Assembly: GCA_015058015.1 (NCBI GenBank)
Contig: SVDM01000004.1
Span: forward strand, 105,501 to 169,500
DNA from: Lachnospiraceae bacterium
GTDB lineage: Bacteria > Bacillota > Clostridia > Lachnospirales > Lachnospiraceae
Length of the DNA: 64,000 nucleotides
Reading direction: 5' to 3'
A model generated the notes under the pieces. It was given only the letters and a program-made list of their open reading frames with translations. It did not search any database and had not been told where the DNA came from. The translations under genes and the position numbers were made by a program. Shown here one piece after another: positions 38,332-55,520 of this stretch (positions within the stretch are counted from its first letter, which is position 1; every line of letters starts with the position of its first letter).

Positions 38332-38360
38332 TTGACATATCCCATATAGGGGGATATAAT
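38332..38360 (+). promoter_or_regulatory. Consensus sigma-A promoter for the cooC-acsA-cooC-acsB unit
   Basis: TTGACA (38332-38337), 17 nt spacer, TATAAT (38355-38360). Lies about 100 nt upstream of the cooC ATG. Confidence 0.6.
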
Positions 38361-38375
38361 TTCCCTATATATGGG
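38338..38375 (+). promoter_or_regulatory. Inverted CCC-(AT)n-GGG repeats overlapping the acs promoter (candidate operator)
   Basis: CCCATATAGGG (38341-38351) lies in the promoter spacer. CCCTATATATGGG (38363-38375) lies at about +1. The flanking TATCCCATA is shared with the fhs palindrome. Confidence 0.35.
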
Positions 38376-38460
38376 CGCGCGCAAGAGGGGTAGTGTGCCT
38401 TGGGAGAGGAACTTTTCTGTTGTGATTAACAACTCACAAACGGACGGAGGAATATTTATT

Positions 38461-39231
38461 ATGTCGAAGACTATTGCTGTAGCAGGAAAAGGTGGCGTGG
38501 GCAAAACCACCACATGTGGTCTGCTTATTGATTACTTAATCAGACACAACAAGAAACCGGTATTGGCAGTGGATGCAGATGCCAACTCCAACCTTAACGA
38601 GGTTCTCGGTGTAGAGGTAGAAGCTACCCTCGGAGAGATCAGAGAAGAAATCGCCAATGCGGAGATTGCACTTGATAATCCTATTCCCCTCGGAATGTCG
38701 AAACAGGATTATGCAAATTGGAAGTTTAACAGTGCTCTTATTGAAGAAGACGACTTTGACATGCTTGTTATGGGAAGAACCCAGGGCAAGGGCTGTTATT
38801 GTTACGTTAACGGAGTACTTCAATCCCAGATTCAGAAGTTCGCCGGCAATTACCAGTATGTGGTAGTTGATAATGAGGCGGGCATGGAGCATATCAGCAG
38901 AGGACTTCTACCCCATGTTGATATAGTTATTCTTGTAAGCGACTGTTCAAGAAGAGGCATACAAGCTGTTGGAAGAATAGCCAAGCTTATCAAAGAAATC
39001 GAACTTAATCCCAGTGAAGTAAAATTGATTGTTAACAGAGCACCGGGAGGCAAGTTAAATGATGGAATTCTTGAGGAAATCAAGATTCAGGAGCTTGACC
39101 TTGCAGGCGTGCTTCCTCATGATGAGGATGTATACGAGTTTGACTGCGAAGGAAAGCCTACGATTCAATTGCCTGCGGGTTCTGCCATGAGAGTTGAGCT
39201 TGAAAAGGTACTTGACGGTCTCAACCTGTAA
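38461..39231 (+). CDS. cooC: CODH nickel-insertion accessory ATPase CooC (copy 1)
   Basis: ATG 38461 is preceded by acggagga; the upstream extension to 38371 has no RBS. P-loop AVAGKGGVGKTT and Ni-binding CxC (GKGCYCYVN). Confidence 0.85.
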   Translation: MSKTIAVAGKGGVGKTTTCGLLIDYLIRHNKKPVLAVDADANSNLNEVLGVEVEATLGEIREEIANAEIALDNPIPLGMSKQDYANWKFNSALIEEDDFDMLVMGRTQGKGCYCYVNGVLQSQIQKFAGNYQYVVVDNEAGMEHISRGLLPHVDIVILVSDCSRRGIQAVGRIAKLIKEIELNPSEVKLIVNRAPGGKLNDGILEEIKIQELDLAGVLPHDEDVYEFDCEGKPTIQLPAGSAMRVELEKVLDGLNL

Positions 39232-39340: not shown

Positions 39341-41239
39341 ATGGAAGAATTCAAATTAACAACTATTGAGGAGTTTGAAGCGGAAACTAATAAACTTCTC
39401 GAGACAGGCGCTAAAGTTGGCGCTGATTCATGGCAGCAGAGAGCTGCTAATCAGACACCTCACTGTAAGTTTGGTGAGCAGGGTGTTTGCTGTAGAATCT
39501 GTTCTATGGGACCCTGTCGTATTACACCTAAGGCACCCCGTGGAATCTGCGGATGTGATGCTGATGGTATCGTAGCAAGAAACTTCCTTCGTTTTACAGC
39601 GGGTGGTACAGCTACTCACTCAGACCACGGTCGTGAAATTGCTTACACACTTATGGAAGCAAGCCCGGATGGTCCTTACGAAGTAAAGGATCCCGAGAAA
39701 CTTCTTGTTATTGCCAAGGAGTGGGGCGTTGAGACAGAAGGCAGAGACATCTATGATGTTGCTCATGAAGTAGCAGAATTAGGTGTTATGGAATATGGTA
39801 AGGTAAGAGGATTCCAGAGATGGATTAAGAGAGCTACTCCCGAGCGTCAGAAGACATGGGAAGAGCAGGGCGTTGCACCAAGAGCTATCGACCGTGAGGT
39901 TGTTACAGCTATGCATATGACACATATGGGTAACTCCTCATTACCTGAAGCACTTATCAGACAGTCTATCCGTTGCGGTCTTTCCGATGGATGGGGCGGT
40001 TCCATGATGGGAACAGAGTTCTCCGATGTACTTTTCGGTACACCTCACGAGGTGGAGACAGAGGCTAACCTCGGTGTTATGAAAGAGGATATGGTTAATA
40101 TCGTAGTACACGGACATGACCCCTCACTTTCAGAAATGATCGTTAAATATTCAGAGACTCCGGAGATGGTAGCATATGCTAAAGAGCAGGGTGCTAACGG
40201 AATTCAGATTTCCGGTGTTTGCTGTACATCAAACGAAGTAACAATGCGTCACGGAATTCCTATGGCAGGTAACTTTCTTGCACAGGAGAACGTCGTACTT
40301 ACAGGTGCTTGCGAGGCTATCGTAGTAGACGTTCAGTGTATTTTCCCTGCATTAGGACCCTTAAGCAAGTGCTTCCATACAAAGTTCATCACAACATCTG
40401 ACATTTGCCGTCAGCCGGATTCAGAGTTCATTCACTTTGACGCACACAATGCAAAAGAGAATGCTATCGCAATCATTAAGATGGCTTGTGAGAACTTCAA
40501 GAACAGAAAGAAAGAGCTTGTTTACATCCCGCAGATGAAGCAGAAGGCAGTTGTTGGATACTCATGCGAGCAGATTATTAAGAAACTTGACGGTGTTACC
40601 AACTCTAACGTTGATGAGATGGGAACATACAAGCCACTCGTAGAGTGCGTTAACTCAGGTGTTCTTCGTGGTGCTGTTGCTATGGTTGGATGTAACAACC
40701 CGAAACAGAGAGCAGACTTTATGCATGTTGAGCTTATGAAGAAGCTCATTGCTAATGATATTATTCTTGTATTATCAGGATGTTCAGCACAGGCTGCTGC
40801 AAAAGCAGGTCTTATGGATCCAAGAGCTAAAGAGTTCTGTGGACAGGGACTTAAGCGTGTATGTGAGCTTGTTGGTATTCCTCCTGTACTTCACATGGGA
40901 TCATGCGTTGATATCAGCCGTATGATGCGTCTTGTATGTGATCTTGCAAAAGATATGGGCTGCGAGACATACGAACTTCCTGTAGTAGGATGCGCTCCTG
41001 AGTGGATGTCAGAGAAGGCTGTATCAATCGGTAACTATGTTATCGGTACAGGTATTGATACATTCCTTGGAATCAATCCTTACACTTCAGGTTCAGAAAA
41101 AGTTGAAGGAATCCTTAAGGGAAGCATTTCTGAAATGATTGGTGCTAAGTATTTCGAGGAACATGATCTTGACAAATTAGCACAGATGATGATTGACAGA
41201 ATCGAAGAGAAGAGAGCTGCATTAGCAAGCTGTAACTAA
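39341..41239 (+). CDS. acsA: Anaerobic carbon monoxide dehydrogenase catalytic subunit (CooS/AcsA)
   Basis: 632 aa. N-terminal Cys clusters (CKFGEQGVCCRICSMGPCRI, GICGCDADG) and C-cluster region motifs (VHGHDP, SGVCCTSNE, MVGCNNP, HMGSCVD). Confidence 0.95.
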   Translation: MEEFKLTTIEEFEAETNKLLETGAKVGADSWQQRAANQTPHCKFGEQGVCCRICSMGPCRITPKAPRGICGCDADGIVARNFLRFTAGGTATHSDHGREIAYTLMEASPDGPYEVKDPEKLLVIAKEWGVETEGRDIYDVAHEVAELGVMEYGKVRGFQRWIKRATPERQKTWEEQGVAPRAIDREVVTAMHMTHMGNSSLPEALIRQSIRCGLSDGWGGSMMGTEFSDVLFGTPHEVETEANLGVMKEDMVNIVVHGHDPSLSEMIVKYSETPEMVAYAKEQGANGIQISGVCCTSNEVTMRHGIPMAGNFLAQENVVLTGACEAIVVDVQCIFPALGPLSKCFHTKFITTSDICRQPDSEFIHFDAHNAKENAIAIIKMACENFKNRKKELVYIPQMKQKAVVGYSCEQIIKKLDGVTNSNVDEMGTYKPLVECVNSGVLRGAVAMVGCNNPKQRADFMHVELMKKLIANDIILVLSGCSAQAAAKAGLMDPRAKEFCGQGLKRVCELVGIPPVLHMGSCVDISRMMRLVCDLAKDMGCETYELPVVGCAPEWMSEKAVSIGNYVIGTGIDTFLGINPYTSGSEKVEGILKGSISEMIGAKYFEEHDLDKLAQMMIDRIEEKRAALASCN

Positions 41240-41286: not shown

Positions 41287-42066
41287 ATGAAAATTGCTGT
41301 TACAGGCAAGGGCGGGGTAGGAAAGACTACTTTGTCATCAACACTGGCAAGATTATATGCCGAAGAAAACCGTAGTGTTCTTGCTGCGGATGTTGACCCG
41401 GATGCTAACTTAGGCTTGGCTCTCGGATTTACGGAAGAGGAGCTTGATTCTATAGTTCCTATTTCCAAGATGCGAGAGTTGGTTGAAGAAAGAACCGGCG
41501 CAAGTTCCGATGGATTGGGACAATTCTTCAGGCTTAATCCCAAGGTTGATGATATACCGGAGAAATTCGCTAAAGAATGCAACGGTGTAAAGCTTCTTGT
41601 GCTAGGAACGGTAGAGACGGCAAACAGCGGATGTGTCTGCCCGGAGCATGTAATGCTTAAGCGGATAATCTCCCACCTCTTGGTTCAGGATAAGGATGTT
41701 GTTATCCTGGATATGGAAGCAGGGTTAGAGCATCTGGGACGAGGTACTACGGAAGATATGGACCAGTTCATAGTAGTAATAGAGCCCGGAGCCAGAAGCG
41801 TACAGACATACAAGAACGTGAAGAGGCTTGCTAACGAGCTGGGAATTGAACGGGTGAGCGTTGTAGCCAACAAGGTCAGAAACGAAGCTGACGAAGAATT
41901 CATTAAGGATCATATTCCGGCAGAAGATTTACTTGGATTCATCCATTACAATGAAGAAGTGATTGATGCGGACAGACAGGGCAAATCACCATATGATATG
42001 AGTGAAGAAGCCGTTGCCGAGATTCGCACAATCAAGGACAAAATAGATAACATGTTCAATAAATAA
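41287..42066 (+). CDS. cooC: CODH/ACS nickel-insertion accessory ATPase CooC/AcsF (copy 2)
   Basis: 259 aa. P-loop AVTGKGGVGKTT and CxC motif (NSGCVCPEH). Confidence 0.85.
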   Translation: MKIAVTGKGGVGKTTLSSTLARLYAEENRSVLAADVDPDANLGLALGFTEEELDSIVPISKMRELVEERTGASSDGLGQFFRLNPKVDDIPEKFAKECNGVKLLVLGTVETANSGCVCPEHVMLKRIISHLLVQDKDVVILDMEAGLEHLGRGTTEDMDQFIVVIEPGARSVQTYKNVKRLANELGIERVSVVANKVRNEADEEFIKDHIPAEDLLGFIHYNEEVIDADRQGKSPYDMSEEAVAEIRTIKDKIDNMFNK

Positions 42067-42093: not shown

Positions 42094-44220
42094 TTGAGAT
42101 TACTTGACAGAGTTTTTAATGGTGCAACAACCATTTACGAACAAACAGTAAAAGCTGTTGACGAAGCAATTGCAAAATACGGTGCAGATCAGGCAGTTTC
42201 ACTTCCCGACACAGCATTTGCTCTTCCCTGCTACTATGCAGTAACAGGTGTTAAAGTTACAACACTTGGAGAGATGAAAGAAGCTTGTGAATTCCTTAAG
42301 AATTCCAACACAAGAGAGCAGCGTCTTGCTGATGGTTTCACATCAGGTATCGCTACAGCAATCGGTGCAGAGTTCACCGAGGCAATCAAATATATTGAAG
42401 GCAATCCTTACGAAGAGCCAATCGTAGCTCACTTCTCAGATGCTATGGTTCGTGAGCTCGGACTTCCCCTGGTTACAGAGGATATCCCCGGTGTTGCAGT
42501 ATTCATCGGTGAGGCTCCTTCAACACAGGAACTTTGCGATTTAATTAAACAGTATCAGTCACAGGGTATCTTCGTTGCACTTGTTGGTAAGTGTATCGAC
42601 CAGGCTGTAGAAGGAAATGCTAAGTTAGGATTCAACGTACGTTGTACACCTCTCGGATATCACATCGAGTCAGTAGTACATATCGTATCTGTTGCTCTAA
42701 GAGCAGGTCTTATCTTCGGTAACATTACACCGGGACACAACGAAGAACTTAAAGCATACACAATGAAGAGAGTTAAGGCATTCGTTAATGCTTACGCTCC
42801 TGTAGATGATGTAACAGTTGCATTTGGTGCAGGCGCAATCGCTTACGGTTTCCCTGTTATCTCTAACGATACCAATGACCTTAAGCCGGTTCCTAAGAGC
42901 ATCGTTATCCAGCCGGATACAACTAAGTTCAATGCTACATCAATCGAGGCAAGAGATGTCAGAGTTAAGATTTCTAACGTTGATATTCCTGTACCTTACG
43001 GCTCAGCTTTCGAGGGTGAGATTATCCGTAAGGGTGATATGAAAATCGAAGTTGATGGTTCCAGAATGGACTGCTTCGAGCTTGTTCAGTCCAAACCTCT
43101 TGCAGAAGTTGAAGACCACAAGATTGAAGTATTCGGAGATGACTTCGACAAATATGAAGACGGAACAAAGATTTCTATGGCTATCATCGCTGAAGTTGCC
43201 GGTAAGAGCATGCAGTCAGACTTCGAGTCAGTTATGGAAAGAAAGTTCCATGCATTTATCAACTGCGCTGAAGGTATCATGCATACAGGACAGCGTGATA
43301 TGATTCGTATCCGTGTAAGCAAAGATGCTTTCAATGAAGGATTCAGAGCTAAACACTTCGGTGAAATCCTTTACGCTAAGTTAAAGAGCGAGTACGATGC
43401 AGTTGTTGACAAATGTCAGATTAAGATTTACATCGGTGAGGAGACAACGAGACTTCGTAACGAACTTGCTACTCCTACCTTTGATCACAGAGATGAGAGA
43501 CTTGGTTCTCTTACAGATGAGAGCGTTGACGAATTCTACACATGTATTCTTTGTCAGGCATTCTCACCCAGCCATGTATGTATCGTAACACCTGAGAGAC
43601 TTGGACTTTGCGGTGCTGTTTCATGGTTAGATGCTAAGGCAACACATGAGCTTGATCCTAACGGACCTTGCCAGATCGTTAAGAAAGAACACGTTATCGA
43701 CGAGAGAGTTGGACGTATCGAAGAAGTTAACGAGGCAGTTAAGAAGTACTCACAGGGTGCTCTTGAAGAAGTTACACTTTACTCAATCATGGAAGATCCT
43801 ATGACATCATGCGGATGTTTCGAGTGTATCTGTGGTATCGAGCCTATGTCAAACGGTGTTGTTATCGTTAACCGTGAGCATACAGGAATCACACCTGTTG
43901 GTATGACATTCTCAGAGCTCGCAGCTATGACCGGTGGTGGAGTTCAGACTCCCGGATTCATGGGACATGGTAAGCATTTCATCGCTTCTAAGAAGTTCAT
44001 GAAGGCTGAAGGCGGAATCCAGAGAATCGTTTGGTTACCCAAGGCTCTTAAGGAGCAGGTAGCTGACAAGCTTAACGCTACAGCAAAAGAACTTTACGGA
44101 ATCGACAACTTCACAGACATGATCGCTGATGAGACAATCGTTGAGGGCGATCCTGAAGCATTAATGAACTTCTTAACAGAGAAGAATCATCCTGCTTTAA
44201 GCTTAGAGCCGATGATGTAA
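42094..44220 (+). CDS. acsB: Acetyl-CoA synthase subunit AcsB, copy 1
   Basis: TTG start 7 nt after AGGAGG. 708 aa. The A-cluster region has CILCQAFSPSHVC, LGLCGAVSW and SCGCFEC. Confidence 0.95.
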   Translation: MRLLDRVFNGATTIYEQTVKAVDEAIAKYGADQAVSLPDTAFALPCYYAVTGVKVTTLGEMKEACEFLKNSNTREQRLADGFTSGIATAIGAEFTEAIKYIEGNPYEEPIVAHFSDAMVRELGLPLVTEDIPGVAVFIGEAPSTQELCDLIKQYQSQGIFVALVGKCIDQAVEGNAKLGFNVRCTPLGYHIESVVHIVSVALRAGLIFGNITPGHNEELKAYTMKRVKAFVNAYAPVDDVTVAFGAGAIAYGFPVISNDTNDLKPVPKSIVIQPDTTKFNATSIEARDVRVKISNVDIPVPYGSAFEGEIIRKGDMKIEVDGSRMDCFELVQSKPLAEVEDHKIEVFGDDFDKYEDGTKISMAIIAEVAGKSMQSDFESVMERKFHAFINCAEGIMHTGQRDMIRIRVSKDAFNEGFRAKHFGEILYAKLKSEYDAVVDKCQIKIYIGEETTRLRNELATPTFDHRDERLGSLTDESVDEFYTCILCQAFSPSHVCIVTPERLGLCGAVSWLDAKATHELDPNGPCQIVKKEHVIDERVGRIEEVNEAVKKYSQGALEEVTLYSIMEDPMTSCGCFECICGIEPMSNGVVIVNREHTGITPVGMTFSELAAMTGGGVQTPGFMGHGKHFIASKKFMKAEGGIQRIVWLPKALKEQVADKLNATAKELYGIDNFTDMIADETIVEGDPEALMNFLTEKNHPALSLEPMM

Positions 44221-44243
44221 TTCAATATTATTTAATTAATATA

Positions 44244-44276
44244 CATAAGCCTCGCACAAAATGTGCGAGGCTTATG
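44244..44276 (+). terminator. Perfect 15-bp hairpin after acsB copy 1 (terminator-like, no U-tract)
   Basis: cataagcctcgcaca-aaa-tgtgcgaggcttatg, followed by cccttaattg. Confidence 0.45.
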
Positions 44277-44485
44277 CCCTTAATTGTTATGTAAACTATT
44301 ACATGGACTATTATGCAAGTAATACAAAAACAGAAAGATTGTTAAAAAATTATCCTTGTTGAAAAGTAACATATCATTCGAATTCATTAAAACGTATAAT
44401 GTTGTTAACACTGGGTTTTCCCGACAATAATGCATGGGCAGACTCTGTTAAAAAATATATATACTTATACTGGAGGTAGGTTTTA

Positions 44486-46615
44486 ATGACACTTTATGAA
44501 AGAATTTTTGCAGGTTCAGATGCAGTCTATGGATTGACCTGCGGAGCAATCGATGATGCCATCGCCAAATATGGCGCTGACAAGGCAATTTCATTCCCCG
44601 AAACAGCTTATTGCCTTCCCTGTTACTACGCAGTTACAGGACAGAAGATTAAGACTCTTGCAGAATTAAAGCAGGGATGTGAGACATTAAAGTCTCTTAA
44701 TTCCGCTGAGACAAGAGAAGCCAACCCCTTACTCTCAGGTGTAGCTACAGCTCTTGGTGCAGAGTTCTTGGAAGCATTGAAGTATATTGACGGTTCAACC
44801 CCCTATGCAGAACCCTATTATGGTCATTTACCCGATGCTATTATTCGTGAGCTGGGAGTACCTCTTGTAACGGGAGATATTCCCGGAGTTGCTGTTATTA
44901 TCGGAGAAGCACCCACAGCACAGGAAGGCGTAGATCTTATTAAGAGTTATCAGGCACAGGGTATCCTTGTTACTCTTGTGGGCAAGATTGTTGAGCAGGC
45001 ACAGAGTCTTAACTACAATATGGGATACGGCGTAAGAGTTGTTCCCTTGGGAACTGACATCACATCAGTAATCCATGTGGTTTCAGTTGCTTTAAGAGCA
45101 GCCCTTATCTTTGGTAATGTGACACCCGGAGATGCAGCCGGTCTTATGAAGTACACAGCAGAAAGAGTACCTGCATTTGTTAATGCATTTAAGCCTATTG
45201 ATGATGTTGTTCTTTCAGCAGGAGCAGGCGCTATTGCCCTTGGATTCCCGGTAATCACCAACGAAACAGAGAATGTTACAGAGGTTCCCAAGGCACTTCT
45301 TTCACAGCCTGACGTATCAAAGTTTAATCAGTTATCACTTGAAACAAGAGAAATCAAAATCAAGATTACCAAGATTGATATTCCCGTTGCTTATGCATCA
45401 GCATTTGAAGGCGAGATAATAAGAAAAGCCGATATGAAGATTGAGGCAGACGGATCAAGAGTCGATTGCTTCGAGCTTGTACAGGCAAAAGGTCTTGACG
45501 AGATTGAAGATCATAAGATTGAGGTTATCGGCAAAGACATTGATGAGTTTGAAGACGGAGAGAAGATCCAGATGGCTCTTATCGCTGAAGTCGCAGGTAA
45601 ATCAATGCAGACTGACTTTGAGTCTGTTATGGAAAGAAAATTCCATGCATTCATCAACTGCATCGAAGGCGTAATGCATACAGGACAGCGTGATATGATA
45701 CGTATCCGTGTAAGCAAAGATGCTTTTAATGCAGGTTTTCGAGCAAAACACTTTGGTGAAGTTCTTTATGCTAAGTTAAAGAGCGAATACGAAGCAGTAG
45801 TAGACAAATGTCAGATTAAGATCATAACTGATCCTGACAAATGTAGCGATCTTCGTCATAACCTTGCTATTCCCACATTTGATCATAGAGACGAAAGACT
45901 CGGCTCCATGACTGATGAGAGTGTAGACGAATTCTATACATGTATTCTTTGCCAAGCATTCTCACCAAGCCACGTATGTATCATCACACCAGAAAGACTC
46001 GGTCTTTGCGGTGCTGTTTCATGGCTTGATGCCAAGGCTACCAATGAGCTTGATCCCAACGGACCTTGCCAGATTGTTAAGAAAGAGCATGTAATTGATG
46101 AGAGAGTAGGAAGATATGAAGAAGTAGATGAAGCTGTTAAGAAGTATTCTCAGGGTGCATTAGAGCATGTTACACTCTACTCTATTATGGAAGACCCCAT
46201 GACATCCTGCGGATGTTTCGAGTGTATCTGCGGTATCGAGCCTATGTCAAATGGCGTAGTTATCGTTAACCGTGAGCATACCGGTGTTACACCTATCGGT
46301 ATGACCTTCTCAGAACTTGCTTCCATGACCGGCGGTGGAGTTCAGACTCCGGGATTTATGGGACACGGAAAGCATTTCATTGCTTCCAAGAAGTTTATGA
46401 AGGCAGAAGGCGGAATCGAAAGAATAGTATGGCTTCCCAAGGCATTAAAGGAGCAGATAGCTGACAAGCTTAACGCTACAGCCAAGGATTTATATGGAAT
46501 TGACAACTTCACAGATATGGTAGCTGACGAGACCATTGCAGAAGATGCAGAAACTCTGATGAACTTCTTAACAGAGAAGAATCATCCTGCATTAAAGTTA
46601 GAACCCATGATGTAA
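44486..46615 (+). CDS. acsB: Acetyl-CoA synthase subunit AcsB, copy 2 (tandem paralogue)
   Basis: 709 aa with a ggagg RBS. It has the same A-cluster motifs as copy 1. The N-terminal ~300 aa are clearly more diverged than the rest. Confidence 0.95.
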   Translation: MTLYERIFAGSDAVYGLTCGAIDDAIAKYGADKAISFPETAYCLPCYYAVTGQKIKTLAELKQGCETLKSLNSAETREANPLLSGVATALGAEFLEALKYIDGSTPYAEPYYGHLPDAIIRELGVPLVTGDIPGVAVIIGEAPTAQEGVDLIKSYQAQGILVTLVGKIVEQAQSLNYNMGYGVRVVPLGTDITSVIHVVSVALRAALIFGNVTPGDAAGLMKYTAERVPAFVNAFKPIDDVVLSAGAGAIALGFPVITNETENVTEVPKALLSQPDVSKFNQLSLETREIKIKITKIDIPVAYASAFEGEIIRKADMKIEADGSRVDCFELVQAKGLDEIEDHKIEVIGKDIDEFEDGEKIQMALIAEVAGKSMQTDFESVMERKFHAFINCIEGVMHTGQRDMIRIRVSKDAFNAGFRAKHFGEVLYAKLKSEYEAVVDKCQIKIITDPDKCSDLRHNLAIPTFDHRDERLGSMTDESVDEFYTCILCQAFSPSHVCIITPERLGLCGAVSWLDAKATNELDPNGPCQIVKKEHVIDERVGRYEEVDEAVKKYSQGALEHVTLYSIMEDPMTSCGCFECICGIEPMSNGVVIVNREHTGVTPIGMTFSELASMTGGGVQTPGFMGHGKHFIASKKFMKAEGGIERIVWLPKALKEQIADKLNATAKDLYGIDNFTDMVADETIAEDAETLMNFLTEKNHPALKLEPMM

Positions 46616-46620
46616 ATGAT

Positions 46621-46846
46621 ATAGACTCTCAAAGTCACCCGGCTCGTGCTTGCACGGAAGCCGGAGTGACCTTGAGAGGCTAACAAATATGAGCATGCAG
46701 CCCGATAGGGCGGAATGCGAATATTTGTAGAAACGCAAGAGCTGCGAAGCGGCGAGCGTTTCGTATATCATTTAGAAATGAAAGCGGAATGCGAATATTT
46801 GTAGAAACGCAAGAGCTGCGAAGCGGCGAGCGTTTCGTATATCATT
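46621..46846 (+). repeat. Unclassified structured intergenic element, locus A: long hairpin, conserved linker, then a hairpin module duplicated in tandem
   Basis: Hairpin 46626-46678 has a CUUG apical loop. The 40-nt linker 46689-46728 is 36/40 identical to 55431-55470. A 63-nt unit is repeated exactly at 46710-46772 and 46784-46846. Confidence 0.5.
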
Positions 46847-46963: not shown

Positions 46964-46992
46964 TTGACATGCCCGTCAATTCTGTGTATAAT
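46964..46992 (+). promoter_or_regulatory. Consensus sigma-A promoter for acsD-acsC-acsE
   Basis: TTGACA (46964-46969), 17 nt spacer, TATAAT (46987-46992). The -35 lies within TTGACatgcccGTCAA. Confidence 0.65.
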
Positions 46993-47122: not shown

Positions 47123-48064
47123 ATGGCTTTTAAACCCGCATCACAGAAATTTAATGCTACTATCAACCAAGTTGAAATCGGTAGCGGAGACAAGAAAATT
47201 ACTCTCGGAGGAGAATGCACATTACCATTCTACACCTTCGACGCAGAGATCCCCAATGCTCCCAAGGTAGGCGTTGAGCTTACAGACCTTGGAATCGATG
47301 AGACATTACCGGGACTCAAGGAATTCTACGCTGGTGCAGCAACTGTTGCTGAGCAGGCTGCTAAGGCTGCTACAATGGAAGGTGCTGACTTCATCTCAAT
47401 CAGATTTGAAGGTGCTGATCCCAACGGTGAGAATAAGTCTGTTGACGAGTGTGTTGAAATCGCCAAGGCAGTTGCAGACGCAACAGATATGCCTTTAGTA
47501 ATCTGCGGATGTAAGAACGCAGAGAAGGATGCCGATCTTTTCAACAAGATTGCTGAAGCATTGGCAGGAAAGAATGTATTATTCCTTGCAGCTAAGGAAG
47601 AAAACTATAAGACAGTAGGTGCATCTGCAGGTCTTGCTTACAACCAGAAGGTTGGAGCAGAGTCAGCAGTTGATATCAACCTTGCTAAACAGCTCAACGT
47701 AGTACTTGGACAGCTCGGCGTTAAGAACGAGACAATCGTTATGAACGTTGGTACAGCTACAGCAGGATACGGTTTTGAGTATGTTGTTTCTACAATGGAC
47801 AGAGTTAAAGCAGCTGCTCTTTCACAGAACGATGCAGCTCTTCAGATGCCTATTATGACACCTATCGCTTCTGAAACTTACAACGTAAAAGAGGCTATTG
47901 TTTCTGAGGAAGATTTCCCTGAGTGGGGCGACCGTGAGACAAGAGCTATCGACATGGAAATTACAACTGCAGCAGCTTGCCTTGCTTCAGGATCAAACGC
48001 TGTTATCTTAAAGCATCCGGCTTCAGTTGCAACAATTTCTAAAATGATTAAAGAATTAGTTTAA
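47123..48064 (+). CDS. acsD: Corrinoid iron-sulfur protein small subunit (AcsD)
   Basis: 313 aa with an aaggagg RBS. The N-terminus QKFNATINQVEIGSGDKKITLGGE and TIM-barrel-like body are typical of AcsD/CdhD. Adjacent to acsC. Confidence 0.9.
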   Translation: MAFKPASQKFNATINQVEIGSGDKKITLGGECTLPFYTFDAEIPNAPKVGVELTDLGIDETLPGLKEFYAGAATVAEQAAKAATMEGADFISIRFEGADPNGENKSVDECVEIAKAVADATDMPLVICGCKNAEKDADLFNKIAEALAGKNVLFLAAKEENYKTVGASAGLAYNQKVGAESAVDINLAKQLNVVLGQLGVKNETIVMNVGTATAGYGFEYVVSTMDRVKAAALSQNDAALQMPIMTPIASETYNVKEAIVSEEDFPEWGDRETRAIDMEITTAAACLASGSNAVILKHPASVATISKMIKELV

Positions 48065-48090: not shown

Positions 48091-49419
48091 ATGGCATTAA
48101 AAGGTCTTGATATTTTTAAATTAACACCAAAAACAAACTGTAAAGAGTGCGGAAACCCAACATGTATGGCTTTCTCAATGAAGGTTGCTCAGGGTGCCGC
48201 TCAGTTGGACGCATGTCCCCATATTACCGATGACGTAAAGGCTCAGCTCGCTGAGGCTACAGCTCCCCCAATGAAGACCATCAAGGTTGGCGAGCATCAG
48301 CTCGGTGGAGAGACTGTTCTCTGCAGACATGAGAAGACATTCGTAAGCAAGACATTATATGCAGTAGCAATTAATGATGCTATGGATGATGCAACTGTAG
48401 ACGCTAAATTAGAAGGCGTTAAGAAAGTTGATTACGACCGTATCGGTGAGAGAATGTATGTTGAGTTCTTATATGTTAAGCATGAGGACGGAGTTGACGG
48501 AGCTAAGTTCGTTGACCTCGTTAAGAAAGCAGCAGGACTCAGCAGAAACCTTATCCTTGAAGTAGAGGATGCAGACCTTGCTAAGCAGGCAGCTGCAGTA
48601 GCAGGCGGAGATTGCATCATCAACGGTGCTACACCGGCTAACTTTGAGGCTATGAGTGCAGCAGCAACAGAAGCTAAGGCTGTACTTGGCGTTAAGGCTG
48701 GAAGCCTTGATGAATTATATGATACAGTAGCAGCTATCGAGAAGCTTGGTAACAAGAACCTTGTTCTTGATGCTACAGCAGATACAATCAAAGCTACATT
48801 CGAGAACGTAGTTCAGATCAGAAGAGCAGCTTTGAAGAACAACGACAGAACATTCGGATATCCTACAATCGTTAAGGTTGGTAAGCTTGCTAAGGATGAT
48901 GACAAGATGCAGATGGCACTTGCTTCATTATTCACAGTTAAGTATGGTTCAATCGTTGTTATGCAGGATATGACTTACGCTCAGGCTTTACCGGTATTCG
49001 GTTTAAGACAGAACGTATTCACAGATCCTCAGAAGCCGATGACAGTAGAGCCGGGTATCTACCCGATCAACGGTGCTACACCGGACGACATCTGCGCAAC
49101 AACAGTAGACTTCGCACTTACATACTTCGTAGTATCAGGAGAGTTAGAGCGCTCAGGAAAGCCTGTTAACCTTCTTATTTCTGATGCCGGCGGAATGTCA
49201 GTTCTTACTGCTTGGGCAGCTGGTAAGCTCAGTGCTTCTACCATCGCAAAATTCTTCGAGGAGCAGGATATTGCAGGCAAGATTAACAACAGAAAGCTTA
49301 TTATCCCCGGAAAAGTTGCAGTACTTAAGGGTGAGATTGAGGCTAAGCTTCCTGATTGGGAAATCATTGTTGCTCCTAACGAAGCAGTACAGCTTGTTAA
49401 ATTCATGAAGGATTTATAA
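48091..49419 (+). CDS. acsC: Corrinoid iron-sulfur protein large subunit (AcsC)
   Basis: 442 aa. N-terminal [4Fe-4S] motif CKECGNPTCMAFSMKV...C. The C-terminal corrinoid-binding region follows. Confidence 0.92.
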   Translation: MALKGLDIFKLTPKTNCKECGNPTCMAFSMKVAQGAAQLDACPHITDDVKAQLAEATAPPMKTIKVGEHQLGGETVLCRHEKTFVSKTLYAVAINDAMDDATVDAKLEGVKKVDYDRIGERMYVEFLYVKHEDGVDGAKFVDLVKKAAGLSRNLILEVEDADLAKQAAAVAGGDCIINGATPANFEAMSAAATEAKAVLGVKAGSLDELYDTVAAIEKLGNKNLVLDATADTIKATFENVVQIRRAALKNNDRTFGYPTIVKVGKLAKDDDKMQMALASLFTVKYGSIVVMQDMTYAQALPVFGLRQNVFTDPQKPMTVEPGIYPINGATPDDICATTVDFALTYFVVSGELERSGKPVNLLISDAGGMSVLTAWAAGKLSASTIAKFFEEQDIAGKINNRKLIIPGKVAVLKGEIEAKLPDWEIIVAPNEAVQLVKFMKDL

Positions 49420-49448: not shown

Positions 49449-50240
49449 ATGGCAAAATTTATCGTAATTGGAGAAAGAATTTCTACAACAGCTCCATCAA
49501 TCAACAAGGCTTTAACAGAGAGAGATCCTGAGCCTATCGTAAAGAGAGCTAAAGAGCAGATCGCAGCAGGAGCAGCTTACATCGATGTTAACATCGGACC
49601 TGCTGAATCAGATGGTGAGGAGAGAATGAAATGGGCAGTACAGCTCATTCAGTCAGAGTGTGACAACATCCCCCTTGCTCTTGACACATCAAACGCTAAG
49701 GCAATCGAGGCTGGTATCTCTGTTTACAACAGATCAAAAGGAAAACCAATCGTTAACTCTGCAGATGCAGGCGACAGAATTGGTTATATTGATCTTGCAG
49801 CAGCTAACGATGCAATCTGTATCGCACTTTGCTCAAAGGGTGTAGTTGCAGCAGATAATGACGAGCGTATGGCTTTCTTACAGGAGATGCTCGAGAGAGG
49901 ACTTGGACTTGGTATGGAAGCTGAAGACCTCTGGTTTGACCCCTTATTCCTTGTAATCAAAGGAATGCAGGATAAGCAGATGGATATTCTTGAGGCAATC
50001 AAGATGATCAGCGACATGGGACTTAACACAACAGGTGGTCTTTCAAACAATTCAAACGGTATGCCCAAGGAGCTCAGACAGATCTTCGATTCTAACCTCT
50101 TAGCTATGGCTATCATGAACGGATTTACATCTGCTATCGTTAATCCTAACGACAAGAGACTTATGGAGACAGTTCGTGTAACTGATATCATCAGAAACGA
50201 AGTACTCTATGCAGATTCTTGTTTAGATGACTTAAACTAA
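49449..50240 (+). CDS. acsE: Methyltetrahydrofolate:corrinoid/iron-sulfur protein methyltransferase (AcsE)
   Basis: 263 aa pterin-binding barrel (IGERIS, YIDVNIGP, LALDTSN, VNSA). Position follows acsC. Confidence 0.9.
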   Translation: MAKFIVIGERISTTAPSINKALTERDPEPIVKRAKEQIAAGAAYIDVNIGPAESDGEERMKWAVQLIQSECDNIPLALDTSNAKAIEAGISVYNRSKGKPIVNSADAGDRIGYIDLAAANDAICIALCSKGVVAADNDERMAFLQEMLERGLGLGMEAEDLWFDPLFLVIKGMQDKQMDILEAIKMISDMGLNTTGGLSNNSNGMPKELRQIFDSNLLAMAIMNGFTSAIVNPNDKRLMETVRVTDIIRNEVLYADSCLDDLN

Positions 50241-50256
50241 TTAAAGTTTAAATTTA

Positions 50257-50290
50257 GGGCGGGAATGAATATTTCATTCCCGCCTTTTTG
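50257..50290 (+). terminator. Rho-independent terminator after acsE
   Basis: ggcgggaatgaa-tatt-tcattcccgcc hairpin followed by TTTTTG. Confidence 0.85.
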
Positions 50291-50360: not shown

Positions 50361-50999
50361 ATGAACGTTGATGAAAAGAATAACAAAGATCGACTCCCCT
50401 TTGAACATTACAAAGGTCTTTACGAGAAGATGGACCCGGAAGAAGCGGCTGCTCGTTGCAGAGTTCCTTATGATCCTGAGACTCACGAATTTACAATAAC
50501 ACTTATGAACAAGAAATATAAGGTATCGCACCCCGATTACGTCATTACTCCCGTGGAGGATGACGGAACTTATCATGCCCTTACTTCTTACAATCCGGCA
50601 GAGATTCTGATTCTTCGTTATCTCCTTGAAGGTGTTAACAAGGATTGTACCGGAGAGAAGAAGGCTTATGCAGATATGCCTTGGGGCGAGGTGTATTTGC
50701 AGCAGTTTTCAGGGAGATGTCTCGCGAGACTTGCTTACGGTTTCGGATATAAGTTAGACAAGTTTGCAGAGGCTATGGAAAAGATGGGAGCAGAGAAGGT
50801 TGATATGGGAGATGTAGCTTATAAGCTTGAATTCCTTAACAATCTTTACCTCTATTTTATTCTTTGGGGTCCGGATGATGAGTTTCCACCTTCATCCCAG
50901 ATACTTTTTTCAGATAACTTTGAATGTGCATTTAAGGCAGAGGATATGGCGGTTGTGGGCGACATATCTATCGGAGCTATGAAGCAGGTATCACAATAA
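50361..50999 (+). CDS. DUF3786-like protein commonly linked to acs clusters
   Basis: 212 aa. The call rests on position between acsE and the RACo gene and on general resemblance to this family. No catalytic motif recognised. Confidence 0.65.
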   Translation: MNVDEKNNKDRLPFEHYKGLYEKMDPEEAAARCRVPYDPETHEFTITLMNKKYKVSHPDYVITPVEDDGTYHALTSYNPAEILILRYLLEGVNKDCTGEKKAYADMPWGEVYLQQFSGRCLARLAYGFGYKLDKFAEAMEKMGAEKVDMGDVAYKLEFLNNLYLYFILWGPDDEFPPSSQILFSDNFECAFKAEDMAVVGDISIGAMKQVSQ

Positions 51000-51048
51000 C
51001 AGCTGTCATAGCACATGGGAAGAGTAATTGATTTTAGGAGGAACTGAT

Positions 51049-52848
51049 ATGGGGTTTACAATTAAGTTTATTCCAAACAATGTTACCGTTACTGTAGATG
51101 ACGGAACTACCATTCTTGACGCTCAGATTAAAGCGGGTCTTGTGCCGGACGCACCATGCGGAGGCAAGGGCACTTGCGGCAAGTGTCTGGTTAACGTTAC
51201 CGAGAGCAAGGAAATCTCAGGTATAGTTAAAGCGTGTCAGATCAAGATTCACGAGGACATGACAGTGGATCTTATTAACGTGCCTAAAGGGTATAACTTA
51301 CTTACCCAGGGTGTAGAAAGAGAGATTGACATCAATCCCGGACTTAAATCTGTTGATGTTACGGTTAAAGAATGCATTATCGGCGATAATCGCTCTGATT
51401 GGGAAAGACTGAAAGATGCGGTGGCTGAACGTGTCGCCATTAATGAGAAAGCAATCCCGCCTAACATTAGGGTGGTAGCAGATTTATACAATGTTTTGCA
51501 GGATAATGATTACAAGGTAAATGTCATTGTTTTCAATGATGAGATCCTTGAAGTAAGAGCGGAGAACAAGCCTATATATATTGTGGCTTTTGATATCGGA
51601 ACTACCTCTGTAGTCGGATATTTACTGGATGCTGCAACCGGCAAGGAGCTTGCTGTTGCCAGCATGTTAAATCCCCAGGCTCAGTTTGGAGCAGACGTTA
51701 TTCAGCGTTCAAACTATGCTATAGAGCATGGCACTAAAGAATTGGCTGATGCTATTAGGGGAGCACTTAATCAGCTTATTGAAAAGGTATGCAAGAAGGC
51801 AAAGATTGATGTTACTGATGTTTACGCAGTAAACCTGGTAGGTAATACCTGTATGAATCATCTCTTCTTTGGCATTACACCGGGAGCTCTGGTTCATTCA
51901 CCTTACAATCCGTCCTTAAGTGAGACTGTTCACTGCAATGCCGGTCATGTGGGAATTAAGATTAACCCGGTGGGTAAGCTTACCTTCTTATCCAACATTG
52001 CAGGATTTGTAGGCGCTGACACGGTGGGTGTTCTTCTGGCGACGGGATTTGACGAGATAGAGCCCATCACTTTAGCCATCGATATCGGTACAAACGGAGA
52101 GCTGGTACTTGGCAATAAAGACAGGGCTATTACATGTTCTACTGCAGCCGGTCCTGCTTTTGAAGGGGCTAAAATTGAATGTGGTATGAGAGGCTCTGAG
52201 GGAGCAATTGACCATTTACAGGTTAACGGAACCAATCTGGAGATGTCGGTTATTGGAGATAAGAAGCCCATTGGAATATGCGGTTCCGGTCTGATGGATA
52301 TAATATGCATTATGATTGAAACCGGTATCGTGGACGAGGGCGGAAGAATCGTTGATGAGGACGAACTTACAACTGATTTTGCCAAGGCAAATGCAGGCAG
52401 AATCACTGAGATTGACGGCAAGAAGGCCTTCGTTCTTGCGGATAAAGATGCAAGTGGCAACGGTGAGCCGGTGTTCATCGGTCAAAAAGATGTGCGAGAA
52501 GTACAACTTGCCAAGGGCGCTATGGCTGCAGGTATTGAACTTATGTCTAAACAGTTGGGAATTCAGACTGAAGATATTAAGCAGGTTATGATAGCGGGAG
52601 CCTTTGGTAATTACATGGATCCCCACAGTGCTTGTGCTATAGGACTCATTCCTAGGGAACTGGAAGATCGAATAATTCCTATTGGTAACGCTGCGGGTGA
52701 GGGCTCAAAGATTGCGGCTCTTTCCAGAAAAGAATGTGAGCGTTCACAGCGGATGGCAAAGCATACGGAGTTTCTTGAACTGGCCACGGATCCTGATTTT
52801 CAGGATTGCTTTGTAGACCAATTAGAGTTTCCTGAACAGGACCAATAA
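51049..52848 (+). CDS. Corrinoid activation/regeneration protein (RACo/AcsV type: [2Fe-2S] ferredoxin domain plus ASKHA ATPase domain)
   Basis: ATG 51049 follows AGGAGG. Plant-type ferredoxin motif CGGKGTCGKC...C. ASKHA-like segments are VAFDIGTTSV, LAIDIGTNGE and GICGSG. Confidence 0.85.
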   Translation: MGFTIKFIPNNVTVTVDDGTTILDAQIKAGLVPDAPCGGKGTCGKCLVNVTESKEISGIVKACQIKIHEDMTVDLINVPKGYNLLTQGVEREIDINPGLKSVDVTVKECIIGDNRSDWERLKDAVAERVAINEKAIPPNIRVVADLYNVLQDNDYKVNVIVFNDEILEVRAENKPIYIVAFDIGTTSVVGYLLDAATGKELAVASMLNPQAQFGADVIQRSNYAIEHGTKELADAIRGALNQLIEKVCKKAKIDVTDVYAVNLVGNTCMNHLFFGITPGALVHSPYNPSLSETVHCNAGHVGIKINPVGKLTFLSNIAGFVGADTVGVLLATGFDEIEPITLAIDIGTNGELVLGNKDRAITCSTAAGPAFEGAKIECGMRGSEGAIDHLQVNGTNLEMSVIGDKKPIGICGSGLMDIICIMIETGIVDEGGRIVDEDELTTDFAKANAGRITEIDGKKAFVLADKDASGNGEPVFIGQKDVREVQLAKGAMAAGIELMSKQLGIQTEDIKQVMIAGAFGNYMDPHSACAIGLIPRELEDRIIPIGNAAGEGSKIAALSRKECERSQRMAKHTEFLELATDPDFQDCFVDQLEFPEQDQ

Positions 52849-53054: not shown

Positions 53055-53861
53055 ATGATTATCATTGGAGAGAAAATTAACGGTTCTATTCCTTCAGTAG
53101 CTAAAGCTATTGCTGAGAAAGACGGAGATTTCATCAAGAACCTCGCAAAGATCCAGACAGAGGCTAATGCAACATACATCGACGTTTGTGCATCAGTTGA
53201 AGAGGACATCGAGGTTGAGACTATGAAATGGCTCATTGACTTAGTACAGGAGGTTACTGACACACCTATCGCAGTAGATAGCCCAAGTGCTAAGGTTTGC
53301 GTAGAAGCGATGAAATTCTGTAATAAGCCCGGACTTATTAACTCAGTATCAATGGAAGGCGATAAGGTTGAGACAGTATTCCCTGTTATCGCTGATACAG
53401 AGTGGGAGTGCTGTGCATTACTTTGTGACGACACAGGAATTCCTCAGACAGCAGAGAAGCGTTTATCAGTATTCGCTGACTTAATGGCTAAGGCTAAGGA
53501 ATATAACATTGACCCCAGCCGTCTTCACATCGATCCCCTTATCGAGATGCTTTGTACAGCAGAAGATGGAATTAACATGGTAACAAGTGTTATGGAAGAG
53601 ATTAAGAGACAGTATCCTACAATCCATATTACAGGTGCAGTATCAAATATTTCTTTCAACCTTCCTGTTAGAAAGATTCTTAACCAGGCATTCACAGTTC
53701 TTTCAATGAATTCCGGTCTTGATAGTGCAATCTTCGATCCTACCAACAGAGATCTTATCGGTCTTATCTATGCTACAGAGGCTATGCTTGGTATGGATGA
53801 TTACTGCATGGAGTACATCAGTGCTTATCGTGACGGACTTTTCGGACCCGTACAGAAATAA
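53055..53861 (+). CDS. Pterin-binding methyltransferase (methylcorrinoid:tetrahydrofolate methyltransferase type, AcsE/MtrH-like paralogue)
   Basis: 268 aa. IGEKINGSIPSV, YIDVCASV, IAVDSPS and INSVS are collinear with AcsE at 49449. Confidence 0.85.
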   Translation: MIIIGEKINGSIPSVAKAIAEKDGDFIKNLAKIQTEANATYIDVCASVEEDIEVETMKWLIDLVQEVTDTPIAVDSPSAKVCVEAMKFCNKPGLINSVSMEGDKVETVFPVIADTEWECCALLCDDTGIPQTAEKRLSVFADLMAKAKEYNIDPSRLHIDPLIEMLCTAEDGINMVTSVMEEIKRQYPTIHITGAVSNISFNLPVRKILNQAFTVLSMNSGLDSAIFDPTNRDLIGLIYATEAMLGMDDYCMEYISAYRDGLFGPVQK

Positions 53862-53904
53862 TTTAATAAATAATTGATTTAAGATTTTTACATTACGTAA
53901 GATA

Positions 53905-53945
53905 CCTATGCTGCTGTTTCGCCAAATAGCAGCGGCATAGTTTTC
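53905..53945 (+). terminator. Hairpin with a short T-run between the methyltransferase and corrinoid protein genes (attenuator or partial terminator)
   Basis: ctatgctgctg / cagcggcatag stem (one G-U) followed by TTTTC. Confidence 0.4.
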
Positions 53946-53998
53946 TTAAATAAAAACCTATAAGGGAATTATTTAACTAAACAAAGGAGGACAATAAT

Positions 53999-54631
53999 AT
54001 GTCAAAAATTGATGAAATCGCTGCTGCTGTAGAAGCAGGAAAAGCAAAAATCGTAGGCGGACTTGTAGAGGAAGCTATCAAAGAGGGATGCGATCCCACA
54101 GAAATCCTTAACGTTGGTATGATCGACGCTATGGGTGTTGTAGGTGATAAGTTCAAGAAAAACGAGATCTTCGTACCTGAGATGCTTGTTGCAGCTCGTG
54201 CTATGAAGAAGGGTGTTGAGGTTCTTAAGCCCCATTTGGCAGGAGATAGCTCAGCTACAATCGGAAAATACATCATCGGAACAGTTGCAGGTGACCTTCA
54301 TGATATCGGAAAGAACCTTGTAGCTATGATGATCGAGTCTGCAGGCTTCGAAGTAATCGACCTTGGTGTTGATGTACCTGCTGAGAAGTTTGTTGAGGCT
54401 ATCAAAGAAAACCCAGATTGTAAGGTAGTTGGTGTATCTGCACTTCTTACAACAACAATGCCTGCTATGAAGGATACTGTTAAGGCTATCATCGATGCAG
54501 GATTACAGAGCCAGGTTAAGATCATGGTTGGTGGAGCTCCTATTACTCAGGAGTTCGCTGATGAGATCGGCGCTGACGCTTATACACAGGACGCAGCTTC
54601 AGCAGCTCAGGTTGCTAAGACTTTAGTATAA
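53999..54631 (+). CDS. Cobalamin-binding corrinoid protein (B12-binding domain with N-terminal helical cap)
   Basis: 210 aa. DxHxxG motif (GDLHDIGKN), plus SALLTTT and MVGGAP. Confidence 0.9.
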   Translation: MSKIDEIAAAVEAGKAKIVGGLVEEAIKEGCDPTEILNVGMIDAMGVVGDKFKKNEIFVPEMLVAARAMKKGVEVLKPHLAGDSSATIGKYIIGTVAGDLHDIGKNLVAMMIESAGFEVIDLGVDVPAEKFVEAIKENPDCKVVGVSALLTTTMPAMKDTVKAIIDAGLQSQVKIMVGGAPITQEFADEIGADAYTQDAASAAQVAKTLV

Positions 54632-54657
54632 TCTGTGTAGATTAATCAGTATTTCTA

Positions 54658-54695
54658 AGAACCGGGGAAGTTTTCCCCGGTTCTTTTGCTTTTTG
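54658..54695 (+). terminator. Rho-independent terminator after the corrinoid protein gene
   Basis: agaaccgggga-agtt-tccccggttct hairpin followed by TTTGCTTTTT. Confidence 0.85.
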
Positions 54696-54848
54696 GGCGC
54701 ATAAGTATACAGTGTAAAATAAATCAAAAATGAGATTAAACATTGTATAAAAAACGTTTATTTATTAGAGATTACGTGCTATAATAACATGGTATGTTTT
54801 TGGAATAAATATGCATAATTTTTGTAAAGTGTAAGAGGGGATGAGCAG

Positions 54849-55355: not shown

Positions 55356-55361
55356 GCGATA

Positions 55362-55520
55362 TGGGGACGAAAGGTCTTACAGCGATTGTGCTTGCACAAA
55401 GAGATGAAAGACTTTTCGGGCCTAACGTACATGAGCATGTAGCCCGATAGGGCGGAATGTGAATGTATGTCGAATCGTGAGAGTTGTATGCAACGGAACG
55501 ATTCGAAGTATCGCGATAGG
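55362..55520 (+). repeat. Unclassified structured intergenic element, locus B (same family as 46621-46846)
   Basis: Outer stem cgaaaggtctt / aagacttttcg. Apical tgtg-CTTG-caca. The conserved linker 55431-55470 is 36/40 identical to locus A. 3' hairpin tcgaatcg ... cgattcga with inner gttg-tatg-caac. Confidence 0.5.

Follow-up and report, generated by a model that had tools for sequence, protein, structure and literature searches.

The window analysed here, a 64,000-nucleotide (nt) stretch of contig SVDM01000004.1 from a rumen-type Lachnospiraceae bacterium, carries two adjacent genes for acetyl-CoA synthase (ACS), acsB1 and acsB2, within one Wood-Ljungdahl core cluster. We read them, with slightly better than even confidence, as encoding two functional ACS isoenzymes that would have a near-identical catalytic module but long-diverged N-terminal A1 modules, owing to homogenisation limited to part of the protein domains. 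On the + strand the cluster has the order cooC1-acsA-cooC2-acsB1-acsB2-acsD-acsC-acsE (Table 1). The Wood-Ljungdahl pathway has its key enzyme in CODH/ACS, the complex of carbon monoxide dehydrogenase (CODH) and ACS, and work on acetogenic Lachnospiraceae of gut and rumen treats them as hydrogen sinks in competition with methanogens.

A first-pass annotation of this DNA had described two full-length tandem acsB genes encoding 708 and 709 amino acids (aa). The open reading frames (ORFs) and the domain content confirmed this, as PF18537 (CODH_A_N), PF03598 (CdhC) and PF19436 (ACS_CODH_B_C) all scored above cut-off in both proteins, and full-length alignments to 6YTT, 7ZKJ and 1OAO were obtained for both. 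The A-cluster cysteines claimed for both copies were found in the pattern Cys-x2-Cys-x8-Cys-x9-Cys plus Cys-Gly-Cys: C484, C487, C496, C506 and C573-G-C575 in AcsB1 (codons at 43543-43611 and 43810-43818), and the same residues two positions further on in AcsB2. Both isoforms also retain Arg142, G145, V149, F229 and F512 (Moorella numbering) and have a gating helix of the form R-x-L-G-[VL]-P-L-V. At the alcove position of Moorella I146, AcsB1 has Leu (L124), while AcsB2 and all compared relatives have Val; both residues fall within the reported range of Ile, Leu, Val and Thr (PMC11321310; PMC12289521). As judged from these features, acsB1 and acsB2 are intact three-domain ACS genes whose products are predicted to be active.

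The two proteins are identical at 531 of 710 positions (75%, BLASTP), and this identity is unevenly distributed. In the N-terminal A1 domain (residues 2-300) it amounts to 58% at the aa and 62% at the nt level, with 0.35 nonsynonymous (dN) and 1.7 synonymous (dS) substitutions per site. The middle domain (residues 301-465) is 79% identical in aa (dN 0.14, dS 1.8), and the A-cluster domain (residue 466 to the end) reaches 93% in aa and 83% in nt (dN 0.047, dS 1.3). The dN of 0.35 in the N-domain stands against 0.05-0.08 for the rest of the gene. These values bear out the earlier estimate by eye that about half of the first ~300 residues match. The long identical runs reported further downstream are present as well, and so is the one divergent patch, which covers residues 446-460 of AcsB1 (YIGEETTRLRNELAT in AcsB1, ITDPDKCSDLRHNLAI in AcsB2) and falls within the linker that joins the middle to the C-terminal domain. 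The many synonymous differences seen earlier correspond to saturation of the synonymous sites along the whole gene (dS 1.3-1.8).

Related loci, labelled L001 and so on, were compared; the 80 species loci that matched best are all Lachnospiraceae-like. L001 belongs to RGIG8000, a metagenome-assembled genome (MAG) from water-buffalo rumen and the closest genome in the species collection; L082-L084 are independent metagenome contigs. The ratio dN/dS against the L001 orthologues was 0.023, 0.037 and 0.037 for the N-terminal, middle and C-terminal domains of acsB1, and 0.030, 0.062 and 0.044 for those of acsB2. Neither gene thus has a part that is at present under stronger constraint than the AcsB1 N-domain, divergent as it is. 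The effective number of codons was 36.0 for acsB1 and 40.6 for acsB2; the values for acsA, acsC, acsD and acsE were 36-40, those for neighbouring accessory and housekeeping genes 44-58. Both copies are therefore strongly constrained and codon-optimised like the other catalytic acs genes, and the earlier attribution of their conservation to purifying selection rather than to recency was upheld by orthologue dN/dS values of 0.02-0.06 together with saturated dS. Between the window and L001, dS was 0.64-0.98 for acsB1 and 1.1-1.3 for acsB2, that is, ~1.2-1.8 times lower for acsB1 depending on the domain. The lower value fits the stronger codon bias of acsB1 and perhaps reflects its higher expression.

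Could one of the copies be redundant, decaying or duplicated by the assembly? Runs of N, 100 and 10 long, interrupt the upstream acsB of L082 (4600-6900) and of L083 (1200-3600), as would happen where assemblers struggle with similar 3' parts. These interruptions are scaffold gaps and not mutations, however, and a nucleotide identity of just 62-83% between acsB1 and acsB2, at a dS of 1.3-1.8, speaks against recent copying and against duplication by the assembly. In the window as well as in L001, where the AcsB1 orthologue is 97% identical, neither reading frame is disrupted, and both genes combine dN/dS of 0.02-0.06 with strong codon bias. Since the tandem pair also recurs in L082-L084, the first-pass view that it is no assembly artefact stands; the redundancy reading is hardly credible and in effect refuted. 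Similar 3' parts apparently do disrupt short-read assembly, so that two-acsB clusters could be under-reported in MAGs.

The two parts of acsB1 appear to have different histories. In the window pair and 11 further pairs, N-domain identity is 58-75% and that of the rest 83-94%, whereas ordinary orthologues with 85-90% identity in the C-part (the protein downstream of the N-domain) are ~80% identical in the N-domain (58% in the window pair). Among orthologues, change in the N-domain is slower than in the remainder of the protein; in the window paralogues it has been 4-7 times greater. This reversal of relative rates favours different ages of the two gene parts. The AcsB1 N-domain is 57-63% identical to every other ACS compared, AcsB2 included, while the N-domain of AcsB2 is more canonical (70-76% identical to the examined single-copy Lachnospiraceae ACSs). 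The C-part of AcsB1, in contrast, is 87% identical to AcsB2, above anything outside the AcsB1 and AcsB2 orthologue groups.

Trees agreed with this division. Neighbour joining (NJ) without outgroups united the C-parts of AcsB1 and AcsB2 with 100% bootstrap, and for the N-domain set all downstream copies apart from single and upstream copies (86%). With Clostridium autoethanogenum and Carboxydothermus hydrogenoformans as outgroups, the C-parts of AcsB1, AcsB2, Acetitomaculum and P0006 formed a 100% clade, and the AcsB2 N-domain grouped with Acetitomaculum (80%). In a maximum-likelihood (ML) placement, the best position of the AcsB1 N-domain was as sister to the single-copy ACS of L016/L024, the position next to AcsB2 being 27 log-likelihood units (lnL) worse. 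Its C-part was placed inside the AcsB2/Acetitomaculum clade, with the position next to L016 40 lnL worse. The best match of AcsB1 in sliding windows switches at about residue 301, near the breakpoint given by the maximum chi-square test (Table 1). Upstream of it, the N-domain motifs of AcsB1 resemble those of L016, L026 and upstream copies (T1): the conserved Pro of RVPAFVN is lost, GILV has become GIFV, and GFNVR, HF and QPDT are present. From the motif EGEIIRK...IE[A/V]DGSR onwards, the AcsB1 states are those of AcsB2, Acetitomaculum and P0006, and 17 of 31 derived states in the C-part are common to AcsB1 and AcsB2. A mosaic structure is thus supported, in that bootstrap, ML placement and maximum chi-square all give phylogenies that differ across the breakpoint, subject to a long-branch caveat for the N-domain. 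The first-pass annotation had described paralogues with diverged N-terminal domains; the divergence was real, but a simple duplication with subsequent N-domain drift does not fit the discordant domain phylogenies, in which the AcsB1 N-domain is not sister to that of AcsB2, while its C-part is either sister to the AcsB2/Acetitomaculum clade or nested in it.

Other comparisons were less informative. A database search with the AcsB1 N-domain alone returned only fragments of at most 62% identity and no closer N-domain relative, and consensus-based quartet counts had too few informative sites to place it. By its flanking AcsA, AcsC, AcsD and AcsE, the window is not particularly close to any of the lineages sampled, and these proteins are therefore unusable as a proxy for the species tree.

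Several results weigh against a mosaic origin of the window pair. The phylogenies come from NJ with bootstrap and from an ML placement by a pruning code of our own, with gamma and rates derived from BLOSUM62; they are not full ML or Bayesian analyses. The branch of the AcsB1 N-domain is long, at 0.37-0.55 substitutions per site, and in a backbone stripped of the other fast-evolving N-domains this domain groups with Acetitomaculum/AcsB2, every other position being at least 14 lnL worse. Left of the breakpoint AcsB1 is equidistant, with 37 sites like AcsB2 and 46 like L016 and no flip of affinity. Its derived N-domain states are common to AcsB2 and Acetitomaculum (7 and 6) and also to L016, L026 and T1 (6, 9 and 4), and C65, E66, N72 and G91, as well as L68 by an ancestral-state method, are lineage-specific to AcsB1/AcsB2. 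The longest identical nucleotide run in the pair is 32 nt, and no conversion tract is visible; the fraction of identical codons is 0.61 in the C-part versus 0.53 in the N-domain (p = 0.09), and synonymous saturation prevents separate dating of the two parts. The maximum chi-square controls P0006 and Acetitomaculum also break near residue 300; as the test is sensitive to domain-specific rate shifts, we take it as supportive for the window pair and not as decisive.

Part of this evidence, namely the placement after removal of the fast-evolving groups, the lineage-specific states, the parity left of the breakpoint and the synonymous sites that do not clearly separate two ages, would suit a history without conversion. 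In that history, a tandem duplication after the split from an Acetitomaculum-like lineage was followed by a burst of change in the upstream N-domain (neo- or subfunctionalisation) and by renewed constraint, and the link to L016-type proteins is due to long-branch attraction or parallel adaptive change. We regard this course of events as possible but doubtful. With L016/L024 in the backbone, the AcsB1 N-domain as sister to AcsB2 is 15-27 lnL worse, and many of its motif states are common to L016, L026 and T1. The burst would need a transient acceleration of ~4-5-fold (from ML branch lengths) confined to the N-domain and then a dN/dS of 0.02. Moreover, the same gene order, polarity and breakpoint recur in relatives with unambiguous recombination.

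In these relatives, the comparisons point unequivocally to recombination or gene conversion at the domain boundary. The N-domain of the upstream copy in L054 (L054_1) was placed with L070_1, the upstream copy of another genome, and its own partner was 219 lnL worse. Its C-part, conversely, was placed with its own partner, and L070_1 was 175 lnL worse. Informative sites shared with the partner and with L070_1 numbered 12:86 before the breakpoint and 59:12 after it. High-identity tracts that include a synonymous excess were found in L054 and L070 (p ~6e-4) but not in the window pair, where the domain discordance also appears weaker (27-40 lnL versus ~175-220 lnL in the relatives) and carries the long-branch caveat. 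A 54-nt identical run in L001 was considered as a recent conversion tract and dropped, because the aa are invariant there and ~70% of conserved codons are identical anyway.

Taken together, we consider it fairly probable that old N-domain types were joined to a homogenised catalytic part. The two A1 types would be old and kept distinct by selection, while exchange between the tandem copies, as gene conversion or recombination, would have homogenised the 3' two-thirds of the genes in this lineage. This homogenisation must then be old itself, since synonymous sites would have become saturated again, and it would predate the split from the sister species.

The arrangement is not confined to the window. 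The order cooC-acsA-cooC-acsB-acsB-acsD-acsC-acsE occurs in 11 of the 80 related loci, among them those of Blautia glucerasea and a Lactonifactor species. Against AcsB2, the upstream member of each adjacent pair scores below the downstream one, and in the four pairs studied in detail the upstream copies depart from otherwise conserved N-domain positions 34-46 times, the downstream copies 13-26 times. A second acsB inside the cooC/acsA/acsB/acsD/acsC/acsE cluster has been described for Blautia hydrogenotrophica, R. obeum and isolate TWA4 (Gagen et al. 2014, PMC4275979), and the window, with its second acsB between cooC/acsB and acsD, fits this gene-order group. The two-acsB cluster is thus a recurrent and already published type and not unique to the window genome. 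A rumen survey from 2025 reported 102 acsB sequences from putative-acetogen MAGs and analysed AcsB from 75 genomes (PMC12449052). Among the papers searched we found no domain-by-domain analysis of two acsB copies, and their domain-wise differing histories seem to be new.

Three of the 80 loci carry a second acsB of another kind, located 3' of acsE (L009 18974-21110, L011 18845-20981, L044 16709-18884). This distant gene clusters with C. autoethanogenum and C. hydrogenoformans, away from the Lachnospiraceae ACS; the genomes include Anaerosacchariphilus hominis and Laedolimicola intestinihominis.

Previous work identified the A1 domain as the CODH-binding part of ACS in both known types of bacterial complex, and located in it most of the CO channel, the gating helix alpha-A and four of the five CO-alcove residues (PMC11474084; PMC12289521; PMC11321310). 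The first-pass description of the N-domain as the part for CODH docking and the CO tunnel agrees with this structural literature (PMC11474084). Since the alcove and gating residues are kept in both copies, both look built for the closed, channel-fed state. We propose, as a working model, that both isoforms would dock on a single AcsA dimer, alone or mixed. Their catalytic module, made up of the middle and A-cluster domains, would hold the Ni-Ni-[4Fe-4S] site and be the part that contacts the one corrinoid protein. The result would be CODH/ACS variants with equal chemistry that may differ in docking, channel or gating.

The isoforms may plausibly differ in CODH docking or in the CO channel. Besides L124, the AcsB1 N-domain has gained the bulky hydrophobic residues F114, F137, F160, F244 and Y251. 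Position 244 aligns with Moorella A265 and is Phe in AcsB1; single-copy and T1 proteins have Cys there, AcsB2 and the outgroups Ala. We take A265 to be a tunnel-lining position; Tan et al. are said to have described A110C, A222L and A265M as tunnel-blocking mutants in 2005. N-domain aromatic residues number 28-31 in the upstream copies of relatives and 17-19 in their partners, compared with 25 in AcsB1 and 22 in AcsB2. Charge and pI of the N-domains showed no consistent difference between upstream and downstream copies.

One can go further and imagine the A1 domains as interchangeable 'front ends', so that one CODH and one ACS core would yield two machines. The hydrophobic channel of the upstream isoform might be remodelled, being narrower, partly plugged or re-routed, and that of the downstream isoform ancestral. 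Tight channelling of the CO that is made from CO2 could in this way be weighed by the cell against the use or release of free CO and relief from CO self-inhibition, while conversion would keep the catalytic module identical because both isoforms must serve the single corrinoid protein. We offer this picture as a speculation to which we give little weight.

It is also rather unlikely that one isoform, most plausibly AcsB2 or its alpha-type relatives, works apart from AcsA, either free-standing on dissolved CO, as described for the ACS of C. hydrogenoformans, or with a CODH from another locus, which was the suggestion of the first-pass annotation. There is a known monomeric ACS (1RU3, cited in PMC12289521), acsB2 is set off from acsA-cooC2-acsB1 by a strong hairpin and a 265-bp spacer, and the closest named relative of AcsB2, from Acetitomaculum ruminis (P0009), is an orphan. 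However, both copies keep the gating helix, Arg142 and the alcove positions, which are relevant only to the closed, channel-fed state, and this argues against a copy without CODH coupling. The AcsB2 N-domain is nearest to acsA-adjacent single-copy ACSs and to the complexed ACS of C. autoethanogenum, and no second CODH gene was found among the scanned ORFs of the window, where acsA is the sole one. The orphan acsB lies in A. ruminis DSM 5522 (L081 8001-10130), where genes for MarR, MatE, DUF445 and a creatinase-like peptidase flank it; none of the genes within 8 kb belongs to the acs or CODH set.

In eight loci, a protein of ~240 aa homologous to the C-terminal third of CODH (AcsA ~398-628, presumably the Rossmann-2 region) is encoded just upstream of acsB, in the slot between cooC2 and acsB: L045 (9143-9881), L048, L052, L065, L069, L073, L076 and L078. 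The A1 domain of ACS is structurally homologous to Rossmann fold 2 of CODH (Biester et al. 2024).

The remaining features of the locus are collected in Table 1. The TTG start codon of acsB1 lies 27 nt past cooC2, with its AGGAGG ribosome-binding site 7-8 nt upstream. The consensus promoter ahead of cooC1 is likely to start a cooC1-acsA-cooC2-acsB1 transcription unit, and that ahead of acsD suggests a separate acsD-acsC-acsE unit. These three genes, for the corrinoid Fe-S protein and the methyltransferase, are single copies common to both ACS isoforms. The neighbourhood is chromosomal housekeeping, with pyrH, frr, uppS, cdsA, dxr, rseP and ispG upstream and prfC, recA and rny downstream. The flanking acs genes are 67-80% (mostly 67-76%) identical to all loci beyond RGIG8000, placing the window, on this measure, in a separate, deep-branching rumen lineage with that MAG as its closest relative.

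Table 1. Features of the acs cluster and its surroundings (window coordinates unless a locus is named)
Feature	Position	Strand	Details
Predicted sigma-70-type promoter, TTGACA-17-TATAAT	38332..38360	+	Upstream of cooC1; 12/12 consensus match, from the match alone
cooC1, CooC/AcsF-type P-loop nickel-insertion ATPase	38371..39231	+	Pfam CbiA/AAA_31; position kept in related loci
acsA, Ni-CODH	39341..41239	+	Pfam Prismane/CODH, E = 2e-167
cooC2, second CooC/AcsF-type ATPase	41287..42066	+	Pfam
acsB1, upstream ACS isoform, 708 aa	42094..44220	+	TTG start, AGGAGG ribosome-binding site
acsB1 N-terminal (A1) domain, residues 1-300	42094..42993	+	58% identity to AcsB2
Inferred mosaic breakpoint, residues 295-302, A1/middle boundary	42976..42999	+	Maximum chi-square, permutation p = 0.002
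acsB1 middle and C-terminal (A-cluster) domains	42994..44217	+	87.5% identity to AcsB2
Perfect 15-bp hairpin, 3-nt loop	44244-44258 / 44262-44276	+	In the 265-bp acsB1-acsB2 spacer
Predicted weak promoter-like site	44402-44431		In the spacer; 9/12 consensus matches
acsB2, downstream ACS isoform, 709 aa	44486..46615	+	ATG start, GGAGG ribosome-binding site
Clostridiales-1 RNA (RF01699)	46616..46771	+	Directly after the acsB2 stop; 101.7 bits
Perfect 63-nt direct repeat	46710-46772 and 46784-46846	+	3' part of the Clostridiales-1 element; 74-nt period
Predicted promoter, perfect consensus	46964..46992	+	Upstream of acsD; consensus match
acsD	47123-48064	+	Pfam CdhD
acsC	48091-49419	+	Pfam CdhD+FeS
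acsE	49449-50240	+	Pfam Pterin_bind
Terminator-like site	50256-50286		After acsE; sequence scan
DUF3786 gene	50361-50999	+	
RACo-type activator gene	51028-52848	+	
Clostridiales-1 RNA (RF01699)	55357-55513		After the CsoR-like repressor gene; 99.9 bits
Clostridiales-1 RNA (RF01699)	L001 12129-12282 and 14625-14785		After both acsB genes; 121 and 118 bits

The acsB1-acsB2 spacer was said to hold a perfect 15-bp hairpin through which the copies might be expressed differently. The hairpin is there, with a G+C-rich stem, a minimum free energy of -28.3 kcal/mol (80-nt context) and z = -7.35 against shuffles, and its arm has no repeat elsewhere in the window. The regulatory idea fared less well: on the + strand no U-run of an intrinsic terminator follows the hairpin (the tail is CCCTTAATTG, and the terminator scan reports the minus strand only), and in L001 a Clostridiales-1 RNA element takes its place in the spacer. 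AcsB1 would be expressed with AcsA; separate tuning of acsB2 behind its structured spacer is possible but unsupported.

All four Clostridiales-1 elements, which over the full model score above the Rfam gathering threshold of 48 bits for RF01699, start 1-5 nt past a stop codon, suggesting a 3'-end-associated or mobile intergenic element. Downstream of the cluster, the RACo-type activator is ~30% identical to the RACo of other loci. The order DUF3786-RACo (50361-52848) is inverted relative to other loci, and in contig L082 two RACo paralogues flank DUF3786. The region 53055-55355, 3' of the cluster, contains genes for a second pterin-binding (AcsE/MtrH-like) methyltransferase, a B12-binding protein and a CsoR/RcnR-type metal-sensing repressor of 168 aa with an N-terminal extension of ~85 aa.

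Isoforms that differ almost only in the domain for CODH docking and the CO channel amount to a natural domain-swap experiment. Their comparison could show how A1 sets CO channelling, leakage and inhibition, for which engineered tunnel mutants have been used so far. As acsB is widely used as a marker, two mosaic copies per genome can also inflate diversity estimates and confuse acsB phylogenies.

Compared by published description, the clusters of Gagen et al. (2014, PMC4275979) are like the window in having the second acsB within the core cluster. That work noted the extra copy and did not analyse its domains, and the window represents a separate deep-branching lineage. The object itself is a further member of the two-acsB clusters; what is added is the case for concerted evolution limited to certain domains, together with a hypothesis on CO-channel isoforms that can be tested. 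Among solved structures, the best match is the CODH/ACS of C. autoethanogenum (6YTT, 'class 2'), with 841 bits for AcsB1 and 913 bits for AcsB2 over the full length; the class 1 enzymes of C. hydrogenoformans (~646-653 bits) and Moorella (621-626 bits) match less well. The gating helix of C. autoethanogenum has the same R-x-L-G-[VL]-P-L-V form as the window copies. These sequence likenesses favour a class 2 affinity of the window isoforms. The C. autoethanogenum cluster has one acsB, the window two. In class 2, which Lemaire and Wagner reportedly described in 2021, A1 is said to dock on a loop plus a helix where CODH Rossmann fold 2 begins, and the gas channel to be re-routed. The monomeric ACS of C. 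hydrogenoformans (1RU3) belongs to the same three-domain family and is a precedent for action without CODH; it is, however, a single gene product found free and complexed (~646-653 bits) and not a dedicated second isoform. Partial-gene concerted evolution by conversion is known between bacterial paralogues such as tufA/tufB. As there, one segment is closer between the copies of a genome than between orthologues and ends at a sharp breakpoint. Unlike there, the window event would be old, with no identical nucleotide tracts left, and the homogenisation appears to stop at a protein-domain boundary, beyond which the other domain stays distinct across many genomes.

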